Of a stretch of DNA of 64,000 bases, positions 34,509-52,976 are shown one piece after another. How positions within the stretch are numbered: position 1 is the stretch's first letter; every line of letters starts with the position of its first letter. Origin of the DNA: an uncultured bacterium (lineage in GTDB: Bacteria > Verrucomicrobiota > Kiritimatiellia > PWTM01). The DNA lies in NCBI GenBank assembly GCA_900661335.1, contig CAACVY010000002.1:3955-67954 (forward strand). The letters are read 5' to 3'. Both the position numbers and the translations under genes were made by a program. Below the pieces are notes generated by a model. The model saw only the letters and a program-made list of their open reading frames with translations, had not been told where the DNA came from and ran no database searches.

Positions 34509-34553
34509 TCCAATCCTTGGACGATCCAGGCCGACACTGTTCCAAGCGTTGGA
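34509..34553. repeat. Two 32-bp-phased TCCAA-N3-TTGGA units (locus 2)
   Basis: GTCCAATCCTTGGAC (core 34509-34521) and TTCCAAGCGTTGGAC (core 34541-34553). Intergenic. Confidence 0.75.
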
Positions 34554-46079: not shown

Positions 46080-47195
46080 TCACCGAGAGGAAAAGATAGG
46101 AGGAAAGCGTTCATATGGTTGCGCGGGGGCCGGTGAGAGACCGATTCGCCCACCTTGGAAATCGAACCAGATCACTTCTCGCTCGAGGATGCCATTTCCA
46201 AGAAGCGCAAACGGCAAATGCGCATGCCCGTGGCCGGTCGCGCCGACGAGGACCTGGACTCGTGGCCACTCGCGAGCTCCGATGCGGAGCGCAACATGGC
46301 CCACAGGATATGCGCGCACGTGCCCTCCTAGACCCGTCATTCGCGGAGTGCTCCGTTCTGTGTCCGGCGGCGGAAGGTCGAGCTGACGGGAGAGCGGTCC
46401 GGATACCCAAAGATCGAAGTCGCCGCCTGTGTCGAAGGCGACCCACAGTCGTCGGTGACCGTCGAGCATTGCCGACGTGATTGGGATGCCGACATTCGTG
46501 TGCAACGCCAGCCACTCCCAGTTTCTCGGCGGAGAATCCGTCGGCGCAAGAACGATCCGTCGGCGCGGCCCGTCCCATTTCATTTGCCCGACCGCGCGCA
46601 GCACGTCGCAGCCCACCAACAGCTCGACGTAGCGGCCGGGCCGATATTCCAAGGTCCATGCATCTGTGATTCCCACCGGCACGTTGGCGATGGCGATGTT
46701 CCCGAGCACAAGCTCTGCGATGTGCTCTATGGATCCCGTGACGGCGGTTCCGAGTCCTTGAATTGTTGCAGCGTCCACGGGGCGGGTATCCCCCACGGAG
46801 TTCGCGGTCGAGAGGGACGAACTCACGCCGAGCCGCCGTGCGCCGCTGGCGCTGAGCAGGCTGCCGGACGAACCTGTATCAATCAGCGCCAGCGCGAGCC
46901 GGCCGTTCACTCGTACCCGAACGATTGGGCGAAGCGGCCCTTCGGCAGTCTGCTCCCAGGAAAGTTCAGTCGGTGCTCGGCGGAGAACTGTGTATGGGGA
47001 AGTCGATACCAGAACCCCAGAGCGGTTGTCGGGTGTGGACTGTGTGCCTGGACGAGCTGTCGGGATTGAGCGGCAACTGGTCAGCGCCCACGTGACGGCG
47101 GCCACCGACATGGCCACTCCCAATCCGCGACCGACACGTGGCCACCATGGGTGTGGGACGGCTGGTTCAACATGTTCCGGGCTTCGCGGCGTCAT
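46080..47195 (-). CDS. Lipoprotein with two retropepsin-like aspartic protease domains (both DTG motifs present)
   Basis: Lipobox-like ALTSC. Domain 1 VNGRLALALIDTGSSGSLLS...LLVGCDVL. Domain 2 LWVAFDTGGDFDLWVS...ALLGNGIL. Confidence 0.6.
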   Translation of the reverse strand: MTPRSPEHVEPAVPHPWWPRVGRGLGVAMSVAAVTWALTSCRSIPTARPGTQSTPDNRSGVLVSTSPYTVLRRAPTELSWEQTAEGPLRPIVRVRVNGRLALALIDTGSSGSLLSASGARRLGVSSSLSTANSVGDTRPVDAATIQGLGTAVTGSIEHIAELVLGNIAIANVPVGITDAWTLEYRPGRYVELLVGCDVLRAVGQMKWDGPRRRIVLAPTDSPPRNWEWLALHTNVGIPITSAMLDGHRRLWVAFDTGGDFDLWVSGPLSRQLDLPPPDTERSTPRMTGLGGHVRAYPVGHVALRIGAREWPRVQVLVGATGHGHAHLPFALLGNGILEREVIWFDFQGGRIGLSPAPAQPYERFPPIFSSR

Positions 47196-47202
47196 CCGCG
47201 CA

Positions 47203-48246
47203 TCATGGGCGCACTCGTGGCGCAAGAATCCAAAGCTCGTTGCGGTGGTTGTCCAACACCACATCGAACCGGCTGAGCAGACGTAGGCCGATACGGCTCA
47301 TGTTCGGAAAGCCAAGTCCTTGTTCTGTGCGGCTGGAGACCCGGACGTTCCGAAACACCACCTCGCCCAGCGACACCTGACGCAGTGGGGTGAGGGAGGC
47401 TTCCTCCTGCACAAATTCAAAGTCGCCGGCGAGATCGATCAAAACCGGTCGGATTTTGCCGTCCACGCTGGCGTTCACAGCCAGCGCGTTGTATCCGGGC
47501 AACAGGGGCAACCGGTCCAACACGCGGGGATGATCCGGTTCGAGTTGCAGCGGCCGGCTGGAGAACACGATCGCCCGTACGGAAAACTCCCAGCTGACGT
47601 ACTCGAACGCTCGGAGGAAAGACCAACCGAGGACGGCGTCCACATCATGCGCGTCCGCCGAACGCGACAGCGGCCATAGCGGCCCGCAGATGGGACGGGC
47701 ATAAAACAGGGCCCCCGCGACGGTCATGACATCCACTTGCAATTCCGGGGACACGCACAGGGCGCCACGCCCAAGCTCCGGCACGTGGTTCGGCTGACCG
47801 TAGATCAAGGGCGGTCCCAGGGGCACCATCCCGTACTTGCGCGCGCGCTCGACCGAGGTCCAGTTGCCGGCCGACGTAGGATCGACCAAGAAGCGCGCGG
47901 GCCGTTGGCCAATCTGGCCCTCCAGGATGGGCAAGGACGAATACTCTGGTCCGGCTAGCGGAACCAACGCCACCAGGTCGGGACGCACACGGTGTGCATT
48001 CACCACCCGCGGCGTTTGGTTTTCATCCAAGGTGATGGTGATCGCAAATTCGCGCGGATCGCGGGCCAGCTGCGTGAATGCTGCGAGTTCCTTCTCGGTG
48101 TAGGGCCGGATCGCTTGGGTCCGGTGCGCGGCCCATGGCAGAGGTACGGAGCTACAACTCGCTCCGATCATCGCGATTCCAATGAGGCCCCACGTGCGCC
48201 GGATGACTTGCGACCTCCAGTGTGTCCACCATGACCAGATATTCAT
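47203..48246 (-). CDS. Paralogous two-domain retropepsin-like lipoprotein with degenerate catalytic motifs
   Basis: Lipobox-like IGASC. Same two-lobe layout, but VDPTSAG and IDLAGDF replace D-T/S-G. Start lies 4 nt after the gpsA stop; the next gene starts 7 nt after its stop. Confidence 0.5.
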   Translation of the reverse strand: MNIWSWWTHWRSQVIRRTWGLIGIAMIGASCSSVPLPWAAHRTQAIRPYTEKELAAFTQLARDPREFAITITLDENQTPRVVNAHRVRPDLVALVPLAGPEYSSLPILEGQIGQRPARFLVDPTSAGNWTSVERARKYGMVPLGPPLIYGQPNHVPELGRGALCVSPELQVDVMTVAGALFYARPICGPLWPLSRSADAHDVDAVLGWSFLRAFEYVSWEFSVRAIVFSSRPLQLEPDHPRVLDRLPLLPGYNALAVNASVDGKIRPVLIDLAGDFEFVQEEASLTPLRQVSLGEVVFRNVRVSSRTEQGLGFPNMSRIGLRLLSRFDVVLDNHRNELWILAPRVRP

Positions 48247-48250
48247 CGTT

Positions 48251-49246
48251 TCAACCCCGTTCAGGTTTGGGTTCCCGTTGAAGAAGCCGTGCGACGGCTT
48301 CGGCGGGCGAAATCCGGCCGTGGACGACATCCCGAACCGCCTCGGCGATCGGCATCTGGACCCCGTGGTGTTCCGCGAGCCGCGCCGCGTGGTCGCAGTT
48401 GGTGACGCCCTCCACAACGTACTCCACGTTCTTCAAAATCTCGGCCGGGCATTCGCCGCGCCCGATTCGCTCGCCGAAGTTTCGGTTTCGGCTGCGGTGA
48501 CCATAGCAGGTGAGCATCAAATCGCCCACGCCGCTCAGCCCGGACAGTGTGGCAGGGTGCGCACCCGCGGCCACCGCCAAACGAGTCATTTCCGCTAAAC
48601 CTCGTGTGACCAGCGCCGCCTTGGCATTGGCGCCCAGACCGAGGCCGTCGCAAACACCGGCGGCAATCGCGATCACGTTTTTGAGCGCGCCGCCCAACTC
48701 CACCCCGATCACGTCGTCGCTGGTGTACACGCGGAAGCTCGGACGCACGAACCACTGTTGCACCGCCCGGGCTTGGCCATGATCGCGACAGGCCGCGACG
48801 ACTGCGGTGGGCCAGTCCTGCGCCACCTCAACCGCAAAACTGGGCCCCGACAATGCCACTACGGGGCCCACGCCCCAGATCCGTTCGATGGTCTCCGTCA
48901 TCCGCCACAGATGCGTGGGGTGGAGCCCTTTCGTCACACTGACATACAGCGCATGCCGCGAGACCCGACCCACGAACCGGCGGAGGACGCTGTCCATATG
49001 CCCCGACGGAACCGCGACGACGACCAGTTCCACGTTCTGCATGGCCAGGTCCTCGCGGTCGGTCCATTCTAGTTCCGGAGGAAGCGGAATCCCGGGCAAG
49101 AACCGGCGATTTTCGCCCGCGGCGATAGCCTCGTGCACATGTTCGGGAAACGGGCTCCAAATGCGCACGCGTCGCCCGTTGCGAAGAAGCACCAACGCCA
49201 GGGCCGTGCCCCATGCGCCGTCGCCGATGATCGTAGCGCAACTCAT
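48251..49246 (-). CDS. gpsA: NAD(P)H-dependent glycerol-3-phosphate dehydrogenase
   Basis: IIGDGAWGTALALVL Rossmann motif and GALKNVIAIAAG. ATG overlaps the plsY stop (ATGA). Confidence 0.9.
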   Translation of the reverse strand: MSCATIIGDGAWGTALALVLLRNGRRVRIWSPFPEHVHEAIAAGENRRFLPGIPLPPELEWTDREDLAMQNVELVVVAVPSGHMDSVLRRFVGRVSRHALYVSVTKGLHPTHLWRMTETIERIWGVGPVVALSGPSFAVEVAQDWPTAVVAACRDHGQARAVQQWFVRPSFRVYTSDDVIGVELGGALKNVIAIAAGVCDGLGLGANAKAALVTRGLAEMTRLAVAAGAHPATLSGLSGVGDLMLTCYGHRSRNRNFGERIGRGECPAEILKNVEYVVEGVTNCDHAARLAEHHGVQMPIAEAVRDVVHGRISPAEAVARLLQREPKPERG

Positions 49247-49932
49247 GGATGTTCAGTCGTTTGGCCTGTTGGGGGCGCGCCTTGGTTGGCCGCCGCCAAG
49301 GAAGGGTTGCTCCGCCCAATTTTAGGTTCCGTACCAGCGAACAGCCGTTGCAGATTGGTTCGGTGGCGCACTACCACCAATAGTCCCAACGCGGTCAATG
49401 CCCACGGCCGCCACAGGTCGTGGACGCCATACAAGGCCCACGCCGCCAGGGGCACCGTGATGGCCGCGCAAATCGAGGCCACGGAGATATAGCGGGTGAG
49501 GCCCAGCGCGACCAGCCAGGTTCCCGCGCCCACCGCCGCTGCCCACGGCGCGAGGCCCACGACCACACCCGCGCCGGTGGCGACGCCTTTGCCGCCTCGA
49601 AATTTTAACCACACCGGCCATGTGTGCCCCACAACCGCGCCGACTCCGGCGACCAGGCTCAGGGGGCATCCGCCTGGCAGCGGCGAGCTCCATGCACGAT
49701 CTGCCAACGCGACCGCGCCCCAGCCTTTGCCGGCGTCGAGCACGAACACGAACCAGCCCCACGCCCGCCCGAGAGTCCGACCGACGTTGGTCGCGCCGAT
49801 GTTCCCACTGCCAACGCGTTGAATATCCACCCTGTGGGCCTTGGCCACCAGCCACCCGAAAGGGATCGAGCCCAAGAGGTAGCCTAAGGCCGCTGCCATG
49901 ACCGTATCGGGCCAGAACATGTTGTGGATCAT
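49243..49932 (-). CDS. plsY: Glycerol-3-phosphate acyltransferase PlsY
   Basis: LGYLLGSIPFGWLVAK...GSGNIGATNVGR...FRGGKGVAT. Start is ATG 49932 or 49920. Confidence 0.85.
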   Translation of the reverse strand: MIHNMFWPDTVMAAALGYLLGSIPFGWLVAKAHRVDIQRVGSGNIGATNVGRTLGRAWGWFVFVLDAGKGWGAVALADRAWSSPLPGGCPLSLVAGVGAVVGHTWPVWLKFRGGKGVATGAGVVVGLAPWAAAVGAGTWLVALGLTRYISVASICAAITVPLAAWALYGVHDLWRPWALTALGLLVVVRHRTNLQRLFAGTEPKIGRSNPSLAAANQGAPPTGQTTEHP

Positions 49933-50115
49933 GTCCCAGACGAATCCGAACCGCAAGCTTGGAGGAGTGGTCGGGCTTTTGCAGGCCGATGGCGCCGCCT
50001 ACCGGGGGATGCGGTCTCGCCGCGACGGCAGTCCAATTTCCGCAGAGTTTTTCCCATGGTTGTGCGAAAGCATGGACAGGGGCGGTGGACTCGGGATGTT
50101 GGGAGGCAACGCCCG

Positions 50116-50336
50116 TCCAAGCGTTGGAACAAACTCGACCTAGAGTTTCCAAGGTTTGGGCGAATCAAGCCATGGATGGTCCAATCCTGGAACGGTGGGC
50201 CAGTGATCCGTTCAAGACAGCTGAGGTCGTTTGTCAAGGGGTTGGGGGCAGTTATGCACAGGTCGCCTCCGTGGGCAGCTTGAGTTGTTGGGCCAGGGGT
50301 TGGACGCGCAGGGCACATCTTGGTCCAAACCTTGGC
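50116..50336. repeat. Extended array of 32-bp-phased TCCAA-N3-TTGGA-type units (locus 3)
   Basis: Cores at 50116 (TCCAAGCGTTGGA), 50148 (TCCAAGGTTTGGG) and 50180 (TCCAATCCTGGAA), with a degenerate one at 50244 (TCAAGGGGTTGGG). A second phase set lies at 50292 (GCCAGGGGTTGGA) and 50324 (TCCAAACCTTGGC). Intergenic between the alpha-galactosidase stop and the plsY start. Confidence 0.7.
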
Positions 50337-50367
50337 CACGCGGGGTAGACTCGTCTCCCACCACCGC

Positions 50368-52455
50368 TTACGGCGCGGGCGGCGTGGATAGTTGCTTGGC
50401 CATCTCGGCTTCCCACGTGGTGGGTGGCCGCGCCGGAGTCGCCCGCGCCGTGGCGTCCTCGGGCCACAGGCGGAAAAGTTCACACCCGTGGCGCGGAAGT
50501 TCAACTTCCAACATTTGCTCGAACTTTCCAAGATCGCGTTGGCGCCACAGATCGCGGACTCGCCATTGTCCGCCAATGCGGAGGTCTCCCCATTCGACCC
50601 GCGCCACTTGGCGTTCCTCATCGAGGTTGAACACACCCACGGCGAGCGAGCCATCGGCGAGTTGGCGGGCCCAAATTTGAACCGGCCCGCGCACCGCGAC
50701 CCGAGAGGCAGCGCGCCCCAGTGGATCTTGGTTGATTTCGAGCACTTCGCCGTTCGTAATCAGGTTGCGGGTGAAGTCGTCCATGGTGGTGAGGTCGCAC
50801 CCGAGAAACAGCGGAGCGGCGAGCAGGCACCATAGCGTCACGTGCGTGTACTGTTCGTTGGGCGTTAGACGGGTCGGGCGCTGCACCGCACCCCATCCAA
50901 CCCGGCCGATGACCAGCATGTCCGGGTCGTTCCAGCCACCGGGGCCCGCAAACAGTTCGAGGCCCGCTTGGCCGAACCCAATGCGGCGAACCGACTCCCA
51001 TGTGTCCTCGATATCGCCCGTGGTGCGCCAGAGGTGGCCGCCGGCGGTCCGTCCCCACGCGGCCACGTTGCCTTGGCCGTACTGGCAGATGCTATAGACG
51101 ATGTCGCGTGGTTGGCGCCGGAGCAGTTCCGCCATGCATAGGTACGGCTTCATCAGTTCTTGCAGTGTGGATCCCCGGGCGACGCGGGCGTAGGTGCACC
51201 AGTCGTATTTGAGGAAATCGAAGCCCCACTCCGCGAACTGGGCGGCATCGAGGGCTTCGTGGCCGTAACTGCCCACCGCACCGGCGCAGGTCTGTGGGCC
51301 GGGCGATGAATAGATGCCAGCGCGTAGCCCGAGATCGTGGATTCTGCGGACCATTCCGGCAAGGTCGGGAAACCGCGCGTTGGGTTGAATCCGCCCTCGC
51401 GTATCGCGACCTGGGCCGCGCACGGATGGGTCGTCCGAATCGGGAGCTTGCTGCCACATGTCGTCCACGACGACGTACGACCACCCGTAGCGAGCGAGTC
51501 CCTGGGTGACCATGGCGGCGGCTTGGGCTTCGACGAGGTCTTGCCGCACCGCGGGGCCGTAGCAATTCCAGCTATTCCATCCCATGGGCGGCGTGAGGGC
51601 GAGTGCGTCCCCGATCACGAGCATTAGGGTACCCGTGGCCGCGCCATGGCGGTTGGCGGCACTGAGCTGCACCATGTACTGGCCGTTTGTTGGCGTGCGT
51701 CCTTCAATGCGCAGCCGGGCGGCATCGAAATGGAGACCTGGGGGTAGGGACGCGACCGACACGGTCAGCGGTTCTTCACCGGTGATGGGCAGAGTGAACA
51801 GGAAGGGCCGGTGAGCTCGGGCGCCGATGACCCGTGGTGCCTGAAAACGAGGCGCGGGATTGGGGGGTGGTGTGCGTAGTTGCGGCGGTTCCTCAGGAAT
51901 GGGGGAAAGTGGCCGCACGGCTTCGTTGGCGACTATGAGCGTGGGCTCTGCCCAGTTCGCCACGTCGTCCGTAGTACCGTCGCCCGCGTCGGTGACCCGC
52001 AGGGCGATTCGACGATGGCCGGTGAGATCCAGTTCGACCCGAACAGGCAAGTCGCCACCGCGCAGGCACGGGCTCGTCCAGACCAGTCGGTCTCCATCGC
52101 CAAGAATTCGGAAGATGACGCTGCCGCGACCCGGCCGGACTAGGTCGTCCACTCCGACCCAAGCCGTGAACCGGACCGGCCCGTCGGGCAGCTCCAGACG
52201 CCACAAACTTTCCGCGTGAACGCCTATTCCGCGAGAGAAGGTACGTCCGCCCATTTGGATCGGTTGACCTCGGACGTTTCGGTTGACCGCGGGTTTTCCC
52301 CAACCGACGACCAGTTGGGAGAGGTCCAGCGTTTCCAGCGGGATTTCCACGGGGCGCCCGTCCGTGGCGATGCAGATAAGCCCCCACACAAACGGACCCA
52401 CAAGCCGGCGGCAACGATGAGCTTGACTCAGCATGCCAAGGTTCATGATCACCAT
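50368..52455 (-). CDS. Secreted alpha-galactosidase (GH27) with N-terminal NPCBM domain
   Basis: NPCBM-like block (GWGKPAVNRNVRGQPIQMGGRTFSRGIGVHAES). GH27 motifs PPMGWNSWNCYG, VVDDMWQ, LKYDWC. Start is ATG 52455 or 52446, around the folK stop. Confidence 0.8.
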   Translation of the reverse strand: MVIMNLGMLSQAHRCRRLVGPFVWGLICIATDGRPVEIPLETLDLSQLVVGWGKPAVNRNVRGQPIQMGGRTFSRGIGVHAESLWRLELPDGPVRFTAWVGVDDLVRPGRGSVIFRILGDGDRLVWTSPCLRGGDLPVRVELDLTGHRRIALRVTDAGDGTTDDVANWAEPTLIVANEAVRPLSPIPEEPPQLRTPPPNPAPRFQAPRVIGARAHRPFLFTLPITGEEPLTVSVASLPPGLHFDAARLRIEGRTPTNGQYMVQLSAANRHGAATGTLMLVIGDALALTPPMGWNSWNCYGPAVRQDLVEAQAAAMVTQGLARYGWSYVVVDDMWQQAPDSDDPSVRGPGRDTRGRIQPNARFPDLAGMVRRIHDLGLRAGIYSSPGPQTCAGAVGSYGHEALDAAQFAEWGFDFLKYDWCTYARVARGSTLQELMKPYLCMAELLRRQPRDIVYSICQYGQGNVAAWGRTAGGHLWRTTGDIEDTWESVRRIGFGQAGLELFAGPGGWNDPDMLVIGRVGWGAVQRPTRLTPNEQYTHVTLWCLLAAPLFLGCDLTTMDDFTRNLITNGEVLEINQDPLGRAASRVAVRGPVQIWARQLADGSLAVGVFNLDEERQVARVEWGDLRIGGQWRVRDLWRQRDLGKFEQMLEVELPRHGCELFRLWPEDATARATPARPPTTWEAEMAKQLSTPPAP

Positions 52456-52976
52456 TCGTTTTTCCAACGGCGAACTTCGCCGGAGCTCGCGTCGAGCAAA
52501 GCGAGAATTTCCGCGACTGTTTGGGATTGTCCAGGCAGGCGGAGGTTGGGGCGGACGTCGGCGAGGGGCTGGACCACGAAGCGGCGGGTGGCCCATCGGG
52601 GGTGGGGGACCGTGGCGACGTCGTTGTCCAAAACTTCGTCGCCACAATACAGCAGGTCCACGTCCACCGTGCGCGGCGCATTTCGGTCTTCAGTTCGGAT
52701 TCTGCCGAGGGACGTTTCGATTTCATGCAGCCGCTCCAGCCACCACGGTGCGGTCCATGGCGCCGCGACGATCAGCACAGCGTTGAGGTATTTCAGGTGC
52801 TGGTATTCCGGCCGAACGCCGACCGGTTCGGTTTCGTAGAGGGGCGAACAGGCCACGAGCCGCACCTCGGGGAGTGCAACAATCTTGGCGCGGGCCGCGC
52901 GAAGATGGGCTTCGCGGTCCCCCAGGTTGGACCCGAGACTGAGTCCGACTTCACGTTCATGGGCGAGAGCATTCAT
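52449..52976 (-). CDS. folK: 2-amino-4-hydroxy-6-hydroxymethyldihydropteridine diphosphokinase
   Basis: LGSNLGDREAHLRAA...SPLYETEPVG...RTVDVDLL...VPHPR. Confidence 0.85.
   Translation of the reverse strand: MNALAHEREVGLSLGSNLGDREAHLRAARAKIVALPEVRLVACSPLYETEPVGVRPEYQHLKYLNAVLIVAAPWTAPWWLERLHEIETSLGRIRTEDRNAPRTVDVDLLYCGDEVLDNDVATVPHPRWATRRFVVQPLADVRPNLRLPGQSQTVAEILALLDASSGEVRRWKNEW

Follow-up and report, generated by a model that had tools for sequence, protein, structure and literature searches.

Proteins of the Lrp type bind DNA as arrays of cooperative dimers, at sites that share one helix face and are spaced by two or three helical turns (PMC2995911). Repetitive extragenic palindromic (REP) sequences, with bacterial interspersed mosaic elements (BIMEs) and REPINs, occur together with RAYT transposases in Enterobacteria and Pseudomonas (PMC3116915, PMC3337134, PMC5581495). 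The uptake signal sequences (USS) of Pasteurellaceae and the DNA uptake sequences (DUS) of Neisseriaceae are over-represented, lineage-wide motifs with a preferred reading frame and skewed codons, and they have no transposase (PMC2817400). The subject of the present analysis is an array of short palindromes at positions 50116–50336 of a 64,000-nt stretch of DNA (the window) from an uncultured bacterium of the class Kiritimatiellia. The array lies in the 435-nt spacer between the stop codon of an alpha-galactosidase gene and the first ATG of plsY, and consists of copies of a 13-bp palindrome, TCCAA-N3-TTGGA. Its most probable role is to serve as a platform for a putative DNA-binding protein, and not as a switch specific to plsY.

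The array resembles the operator clusters of the Lrp or feast/famine regulatory proteins (FFRPs), such as FL11, Ss-LrpB and Escherichia coli Lrp, in its 13-bp palindrome with a 5-3-5 layout. It also has clusters of imperfect copies on the same helix face, two or three turns apart, in agreement with the spacing rule of that family (PMC2995911), and by analogy cooperative binding with wrapping would be expected. It differs in that a genome has some 100 loci or more, which are found in all types of spacer and inside genes, and not just at promoters. The sites are thus not confined to control regions of regulated genes, and nothing in their placement suggests an effector or a regulon.

REP, BIME and REPIN elements are likewise short, palindromic, clustered extragenic repeats in hundreds of copies, specific to a lineage, biased to 3′-end spacers and with some recent copies between loci. 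Unlike them, the array units are direct repeats in register, the spacers between them being unique but constant in length, and form no inverted-doublet hairpin. USS and DUS share with the array motif the features given above, but the array motif is palindromic and comes in phased pairs, and it is roughly 10-fold sparser. CRISPR arrays also have regular, partly palindromic repeats and unique spacers of constant length. Their repeats are about 23–50 nt and their spacers about 26–72 nt, and the arrays are long, few in number and accompanied by cas genes, whereas here the core is 13–19 nt and the spacers 19 nt, with 2–7 units in each of about 100 short arrays per genome and no recurrent neighbouring gene. 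The genuine CRISPR array of a related genome looks quite different.

Structure of the array

The locus is one continuous array of six units, in which U4 and U5 are tandem long-loop copies and U1 to U3 and U6 are ordinary units. The units start at 50116, 50148, 50180, 50211, 50268 and 50324, and are separated by spacers of 19, 19, 19, 21 and 19 nt. Ordinary units were scored with a position weight matrix (PWM) trained on 214 units elsewhere in the genome, and the scores were ranked against the genome background. U1 (50116–50128) is a perfect unit, TCCAAGCGTTGGA, with the extended form cGTCCAAgcgTTGGAAc; it has a PWM score of 24.0 and a background P of 3e-5. U2 (50148–50160), TCCAAGGTTTGGG, has one mismatch in its TTGGG arm and scores 17.7. 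U3 (50180–50191), TCCAATCC-TGGA, has lost one nucleotide from its right arm and scores 12.5. These three units had been predicted from the sequence as they are found here. U6 (50324–50336), TCCAAACCTTGGC, has one mismatch and scores 17.5.

U4 (50211–50246) is a long-loop unit of 36 nt, recognized by short-word BLAST and alignment, whose arms TTCAA and TTGGG enclose the 26-nt loop GACAGCTGAGGTCGTTTGTCAAGGGG. U5 (50268–50304), found by repeat alignment, is a diverged tandem copy of it with the arms TCCGT and TTGGA and a loop of 27 nt. The two match at 75% over 28 nt, as a direct repeat at an offset of 58 nt. The right half of U5 corresponds to the unit previously placed at 50292, with a PWM score of 9.3 and two mismatches. 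For the five scoring positions, 50116, 50148, 50180, 50292 and 50324, the tail probability in the background ranges from 3e-5 to 1.3e-4.

The original prediction had seen a degenerate unit at 50244, a 32-nt lattice for all units up to it, and a second set of units offset by half a period. Position 50244 scores −35.8, which is the background median, and holds no unit; the only unit sequence near it is the right arm TTGGG of U4 (50242–50246), which had been misread. Positions 50292 and 50324 both score and are 32 nt apart as predicted, but 50292 is half of a longer unit. The pair lies 176 nt, or 5.5 periods, from 50116. The lattice holds for the first three units, but not for the later starts at 50211, 50268 and 50324, and it is the spacers, about 19 nt throughout, that are constant. 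The deletion of one nucleotide in U3 shifts the next unit to +31, and the apparent second phase with its 48-nt offset arises because the two expanded loops add 23 and 24 nt, about 47 nt in all. There is no second lattice.

Raw autocorrelation at lag 32 is significant only within 50100–50200 (z 3.7; the 95% maximum of the shuffles is 3.49), and neither over 50100–50345 (z 2.5) nor over the whole spacer (z 1.7). The autocorrelation proposed as a check thus goes half against the prediction, as a simple 32-nt lattice does not extend past the first three, clear units. Two weak unit-like matches, each with three mismatches and not individually significant, were also seen: one at 50052–50064 (PWM 5.2), on the lattice of U1 at −64 nt, and one at 50164–50176 (PWM 0.9), at a half-period position. 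The array is the longest in the window, as had been stated, but arrays of 6–7 units exist elsewhere in the genome, on contigs C56 and C39. The suggestion that it grew by duplication of units and then decayed is supported at the locus by the tandem copies U4 and U5, the base lost from U3 and the degraded arms of U4 and U5.

A phased, dyad-symmetric family

The genome (G000) is a metagenome-assembled genome (MAG) of 2.63 Mb in 137 contigs, with 62% G+C and 68% completeness. It contains 177 perfect TCCAA-N3-TTGGA sites, against 1–11 for the other arm spacings among N0–N7, and these form about 75–96 clusters of 2–7 units. Adjacent sites are 31 or 32 nt apart in 74 cases, and the lattice continues at 64, 96 and 128 nt. 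The extended consensus, yyGTCCAAgscTTGGACrr, is dyad symmetric and its N3 centre is G+C-rich. The composition of the spacers is also dyad symmetric with a G+C-rich centre, while the spacers are otherwise unique, with an identity of 0.41 between adjacent ones and 0.33 between random pairs. The copies are numerous, short, palindromic and mostly extragenic, as REP elements are.

The spacing is quantized in turns of the helix. At 120 loci from many genomes, centre-to-centre distances fall at 20–22 nt (19 cases), 30–33 nt (331) and 42–43 nt (3), with almost none between; the 31/32-nt class is inflated, the loci having been selected on it, while the other distance classes were not selected. These distances are about two, three and four helical turns. 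Pairing between the arms has left no comparable trace. Only 1 of 15 lattice-supported double variants is mirror-complementary, 48 units carry a single uncompensated mismatch, and no compensatory changes beyond chance were found in variant units. A perfect unit folds as single-stranded DNA with only −2.7 kcal/mol, and the array as RNA folds no better than its shuffles (z −0.65). The element is strand-symmetric. The quantized spacing, together with the lack of compensation and the weak hairpins, argues that specific bases are recognized, on duplex DNA and from one helix face. It is the sequence that is conserved and not the pairing, which points to recognition of duplex DNA by a putative protein and not to a hairpin. 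The family thus exists, is phased and has dyad symmetry at the DNA level.

The family is restricted to this one class. Of 41 relatives, 27 have the pair pattern, at up to 497 pairs in a genome, and none has the reversed control. In a phylum-wide sample, 24 of the 67 genomes from the class had the motif, and 0 of 134 from other classes. A three-unit pattern run against 185,579 species genomes matched only MAGs of the Planctomycetes–Verrucomicrobia–Chlamydiae (PVC) group, labelled Kiritimatiellae or Kiritimatiellia, Verrucomicrobiota, Lentisphaerae or Spartobacteria, and some just ‘uncultured bacterium’. In most relatives the unit is TTTTCCAA-N3-TTGGAAAA, strikingly A+T-rich even in genomes of 70% G+C. 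Neither the motif nor palindromic repeats of Kiritimatiellia were found described in a limited full-text keyword search of the literature.

The distribution is patchy within genera: in genus g23 one genome has 63 pairs and others 0–4, and in g24 two genomes have 104 and 87 pairs and others 0 and 2. Such an all-or-none pattern would be expected if the arrays depend on a trans-acting factor that is dispensable. Probably the ancestor of the class already had the family, and many lineages have since lost both it and its putative factor. The array-free genome G007 has no substitute palindrome, and its sole enriched palindrome is an ordinary CRISPR repeat. In that CRISPR array (L197–L199, C1:28450–30560), CCCACGCGCGTGGG is part of 35 repeats that recur every 61 nt. 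In rumen Kiritimatiellae MAGs with 68–70% G+C, arrays (L033, L045, L093 and L117) are capped at one or both ends by a doublet of units just 22 nt apart, for example with the spacing 22-31-31-30-22, giving a symmetric overall architecture.

Within the window, 15 matches with at most one mismatch are present, where 1.3 are expected. Among them are two sister arrays found by motif match, one of three perfect units with a 32-nt period at 1933–2009 and one of two perfect units 32 nt apart at 34509–34553. Around 199 arrays no recurrent neighbouring gene was found, the largest cluster of neighbours having 6 members. Arrays lie in all types of spacer, with convergent and divergent ones in a ratio of 36:19 at arrays and 297:302 in the background (p 0.02); these counts are approximate, as the gene calls come from a crude caller based on codon log-odds.

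The genes on either side of the 50116–50336 array had been named correctly in the original prediction. The alpha-galactosidase gene (50368–52647, minus strand), of the GH27 type with NPCBM and Ig-like domains, is the upstream gene and ends with TAA at 50368–50370. On the same strand, plsY (49243–49932; G3P_acyltransf, PF02660) has its first ATG at 49932, in a reading frame open from a TTG at 49956, and is followed by gpsA (48251–49246, minus strand). The array lies 32 nt downstream of the alpha-galactosidase stop codon, and U1 lies 184 nt upstream of the first ATG of plsY. Downstream of gpsA, at 46080–48417 on the minus strand, are two adjoining open reading frames (ORFs). One gives two matches to the retropepsin-like family Asp_protease_2, and the other (47203–48417, minus strand) has no Pfam match.

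Conserved pairs in genes and turnover between genes

Only three arrays of the genome are truly inside genes, most other apparently genic placements being over-extended 5′ ends of ORFs. Each is a two-unit array in true coding sequence: in a hemW-like radical-SAM gene (C50:19735–19779), a methyltransferase gene (C18:6939–6983) and a membrane protein gene (C108:1031–1075). All three pairs occur at the homologous position in the congener G002, without gaps, and two of them reach other genera. The hemW pair consists of two perfect sites exactly 32 bp apart in G000, G002, G003, G006 and G010, and has one mismatch in G001, G008 and G011, the block around it being gap-free in most orthologues. It has decayed in G007, a member of the family without arrays, and is absent further out. 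All four congeners have a perfect methyltransferase pair and G008 an almost perfect one, and paralogues of the gene are without it. Orthologues that have no pair can be aligned to these genes without a gap, so that the pairs arose by point mutation, not by insertion.

The three pairs use the same reading frames, unit 1 encoding x-Q-x-L-D/E and unit 2 S-K/N-x-W. The synonymous codons specified by the motif (CAA, TTG and TCC) never vary, while other codons for invariant amino acids do. In eight hemW orthologues, 2 of 2 such codons are invariant inside the motif and 1 of 107 outside (p 5e-4). In unselected sets, the synonymous constraint has p values of 0.002 for hemW within the genus only, 0.064 for the methyltransferase and 0.097 for the C108 membrane protein, and the three combined give p 0.001 by Fisher's method. 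What is conserved is the 32-bp pair. These alignments show apparent selection on the motif at the level of the DNA.

Intergenic arrays are labile, and some of their sequence is shared between loci. Short-word BLAST against the genome shows that the 33-nt stretch 50213–50245 recurs with 94–97% identity in the arrays at C46:699–731 and C44:35227–35259. The long-loop units there, C46:695–731 and C44:35223–35259, have this identity to U4 over the loop and the core of the right arm, together 30–33 nt. The unit on C46 is on the lattice, with 19-nt spacers on both sides and the form TCCAA-[26 nt]-TTGGA, the 3-nt centre of an ordinary unit being replaced by GACAGCTGAGGTCGCTTGTCAAGGGG. The long-loop unit is found at three loci in this genome and in none of 14 relatives, and being confined to one species it has therefore spread recently. 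Altogether, 12 pairs of arrays share at least 24 bp beyond the core. The two largest arrays of the genome, C56:9279–9623 and C56:37143–37387, share 178 bp at 88% identity; they are 28 kb apart and both lie in convergent spacers, and a whole array has thus been duplicated. On insertion or transposition the evidence is mixed: the long-loop copies and the C56 duplicate would point to it, and the gap-free pairs in genes against it.

Of 274 contig ends, 14 have a perfect site no more than 100 nt away, where about 1.6 are expected (p 1e-9). This suggests assembly breaks caused by polymorphism or repetition of the arrays. Examples of ends near arrays are C38:32, C54:32, C126:32, C91:29 and C50:14, and several contigs start exactly in the register of the lattice.

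The positions of intergenic arrays also change between species. The motif is found upstream of plsY in none of 12 relatives (for four of them the sequence covered was 110–830 nt), so that the comparison of plsY spacers suggested earlier shows the intergenic array not to be kept. In two congeners with listed ORFs, plsY follows a different gene after about 15–70 nt. Three further spacers with conserved flanks have an array in one species and are empty in the other. Spacers with arrays in G002 have a flank lacking an orthologue in G000 in 10 of 11 cases, compared with 123 of 229 control spacers (p 0.025). These comparisons show that the intergenic copies turn over.

A putative binding platform and its alternatives

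Our tentative preference, a little short of even confidence, is that the array belongs to a class-wide family of phased, operator-like arrays which serve as platforms for a putative cooperative dimer. Each unit would be a dyad-symmetric site, TCCAA-N3-TTGGA or, in most relatives, TTTTCCAA-N3-TTGGAAAA, read on double-stranded DNA by a putative dimeric, sequence-specific protein. Neighbouring dimers would bind cooperatively on the same helix face, three turns apart (31–32 bp; two turns in some lineages), so that the working unit would be a pair, and longer arrays would nucleate a short nucleoprotein filament or a wrap. The role would likely be architectural, of the nucleoid-associated, insulator or roadblock type, and not the control of a single gene. 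The copy beside plsY is an ageing array, grown by tandem duplication of the long-loop variant and now eroding. The protein binding, its oligomerization and its role are putative. A binding platform had already been suggested for this locus; it is favoured here on the helical quantization and the synonymous constraint of the whole family, and not on the locus alone.

A bolder form of this proposal, possible but rather doubtful, is a previously undescribed Kiritimatiellia system in which an oligomerizing putative protein would act on TTCCAA-N3-TTGGAA dyads two or three turns apart. It would form filaments at about 100–1000 places per genome, with sites kept inside genes at a cost in codons. It may then represent a novel type of chromatin or insulator element in bacteria, and not a selfish repeat of the REP type.

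Known protein families were considered as the trans-acting factor. The Y1 transposase domain of RAYT (PF01797) was rejected, as it has no match in G000–G003, G006, G023 (497 pairs) and G034 (79 pairs), while it is present in 12 array-free genomes. The RAM domain of Lrp/AsnC proteins (PF01037) does not co-distribute with the arrays: 37 of 41 genomes encode it, whether or not they carry arrays, and G019, with 84 pairs and 95% completeness, has none. The family is thus independent of the presence of RAYT and of Lrp-family proteins. A specific Lrp/AsnC paralogue may still be the binder. ComEC occurs in all 24 genomes tested. A second, longer ComEC-like paralogue, in frames of about 1155–1190 residues, was seen in G001, G002, G003, G019, G020, G030, G128 and G210, and does not track the arrays.

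Several observations weigh against the cooperative-dimer platform. Some copying between loci has taken place, which a pure binding-site model does not need, and the intergenic arrays are not conserved in position (plsY, C42:4500, C121:13379 and the G002 array L172). The Lrp/AsnC RAM domain does not track the arrays, array-free genomes being among those that have it. The G+C-rich N3 centre is unlike classical Lrp sites. ComEC, being universal, is uninformative for the arrays. The synonymous constraint could come from biased drive instead of selection for binding.

An unlikely alternative is a REP-, BIME- or REPIN-like selfish element, a non-autonomous mobile repeat that would form hairpins and be spread by a domesticated transposase, the array being an inert, decaying cluster of insertions. 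High-copy, mostly extragenic palindromes in clusters are what such an element would leave, and the convergent excess of 36:19, the changing positions beside non-conserved genes (the 10 of 11 flanks above), the recent copying of the long-loop unit to three loci, the C56 duplication and the enrichment of contig ends at arrays (14 of 274) all agree with it. However, RAYT is absent from the seven array-rich genomes named above, and no recurrent flanking gene was found. The spacers are unique and not self-complementary (0.275 identity to their own reverse complement and 0.33 for random pairs), so no REPIN doublet hairpin is formed, and the hairpin of a single unit is very weak. The in-gene pairs, moreover, arose without insertion or deletion and are held by synonymous constraint across genera. 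That constraint could also be read as the mark of an uptake-signal-like or repair-driven motif, accumulating by molecular drive and not by selection for a chromosomal function, which we consider rather improbable. The drive would come from biased uptake of DNA with recombination, or from biased mismatch repair linked to a methyltransferase. The motif is lineage-wide and over-represented, its in-gene copies arose by point mutation in a preferred frame, at conserved positions and with skewed codons, and comparable reading-frame and codon biases are known for uptake sequences in coding regions (PMC2817400). The patchy distribution is as expected when a driving system is often lost, and ComEC is found in every genome tested. 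Yet ComEC is the same in array-bearing and array-free genomes, and the palindromy and the exact 32-bp pair, kept even in genes, are explained neither by uptake bias nor by short-patch repair. The density of about 1 site per 15 kb is also low, that of USS and DUS being roughly 1 per kb.

Two further explanations were considered. The array might be a cis-regulatory operator or promoter array for plsY and gpsA, for example with a −35 element (TTGGAA/C) like those of extracytoplasmic function (ECF) or sigma-70 factors, a spacer of 16–18 nt and TCCAA as −10 element. It lies 184–400 nt upstream of plsY on the transcribed side, and the 19-nt gap between arms would resemble a promoter spacer. This is very unlikely: no sigma-70-type promoter was found at the locus, we know of no precedent for a −10 element that is exactly reverse-complementary to its −35 element, the arrays of the family favour convergent spacers and are also present within genes, and the 12 relatives have no motif in the sequence covered upstream of plsY, which adjoins another gene in two congeners. 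The link to the plsY-gpsA operon drawn in the original prediction is thus unsupported, and there is no evidence that the array regulates plsY. The distance of 32 nt from the alpha-galactosidase stop codon would fit transcribed hairpins that act as terminators, stabilizers of 3′ ends or protein-titrating RNAs, as would the modest enrichment in convergent spacers and the A- and T-runs that flank units in some low-G+C relatives. But in most genomes the T-runs lie 5′ and the A-runs 3′ of the stem, the locus has no intrinsic terminator and no match to an Rfam family even at E ≤ 1, and the stems have 5 bp. With strand symmetry, no covariation and no folding beyond that of shuffles, action at the RNA level is the least probable of these explanations.

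When palindromic repeats are dispersed over a bacterial genome, they are usually classed as selfish DNA of the REP type. The present family fails the tests for it: RAYT is missing, the hairpins are not stable, and the copies in genes were made without insertion. It has instead the hallmarks of a selected, helically phased, putative protein-binding element in a class of little-studied PVC bacteria, some species of which have lost it altogether. In annotation, the array in front of plsY should not be labelled an operator of that gene. The all-or-none pattern, including the contrasts within genera, makes the binder findable by phylogenetic profiling or DNA-affinity capture, and if it is found, it would define a new architectural DNA–protein system.

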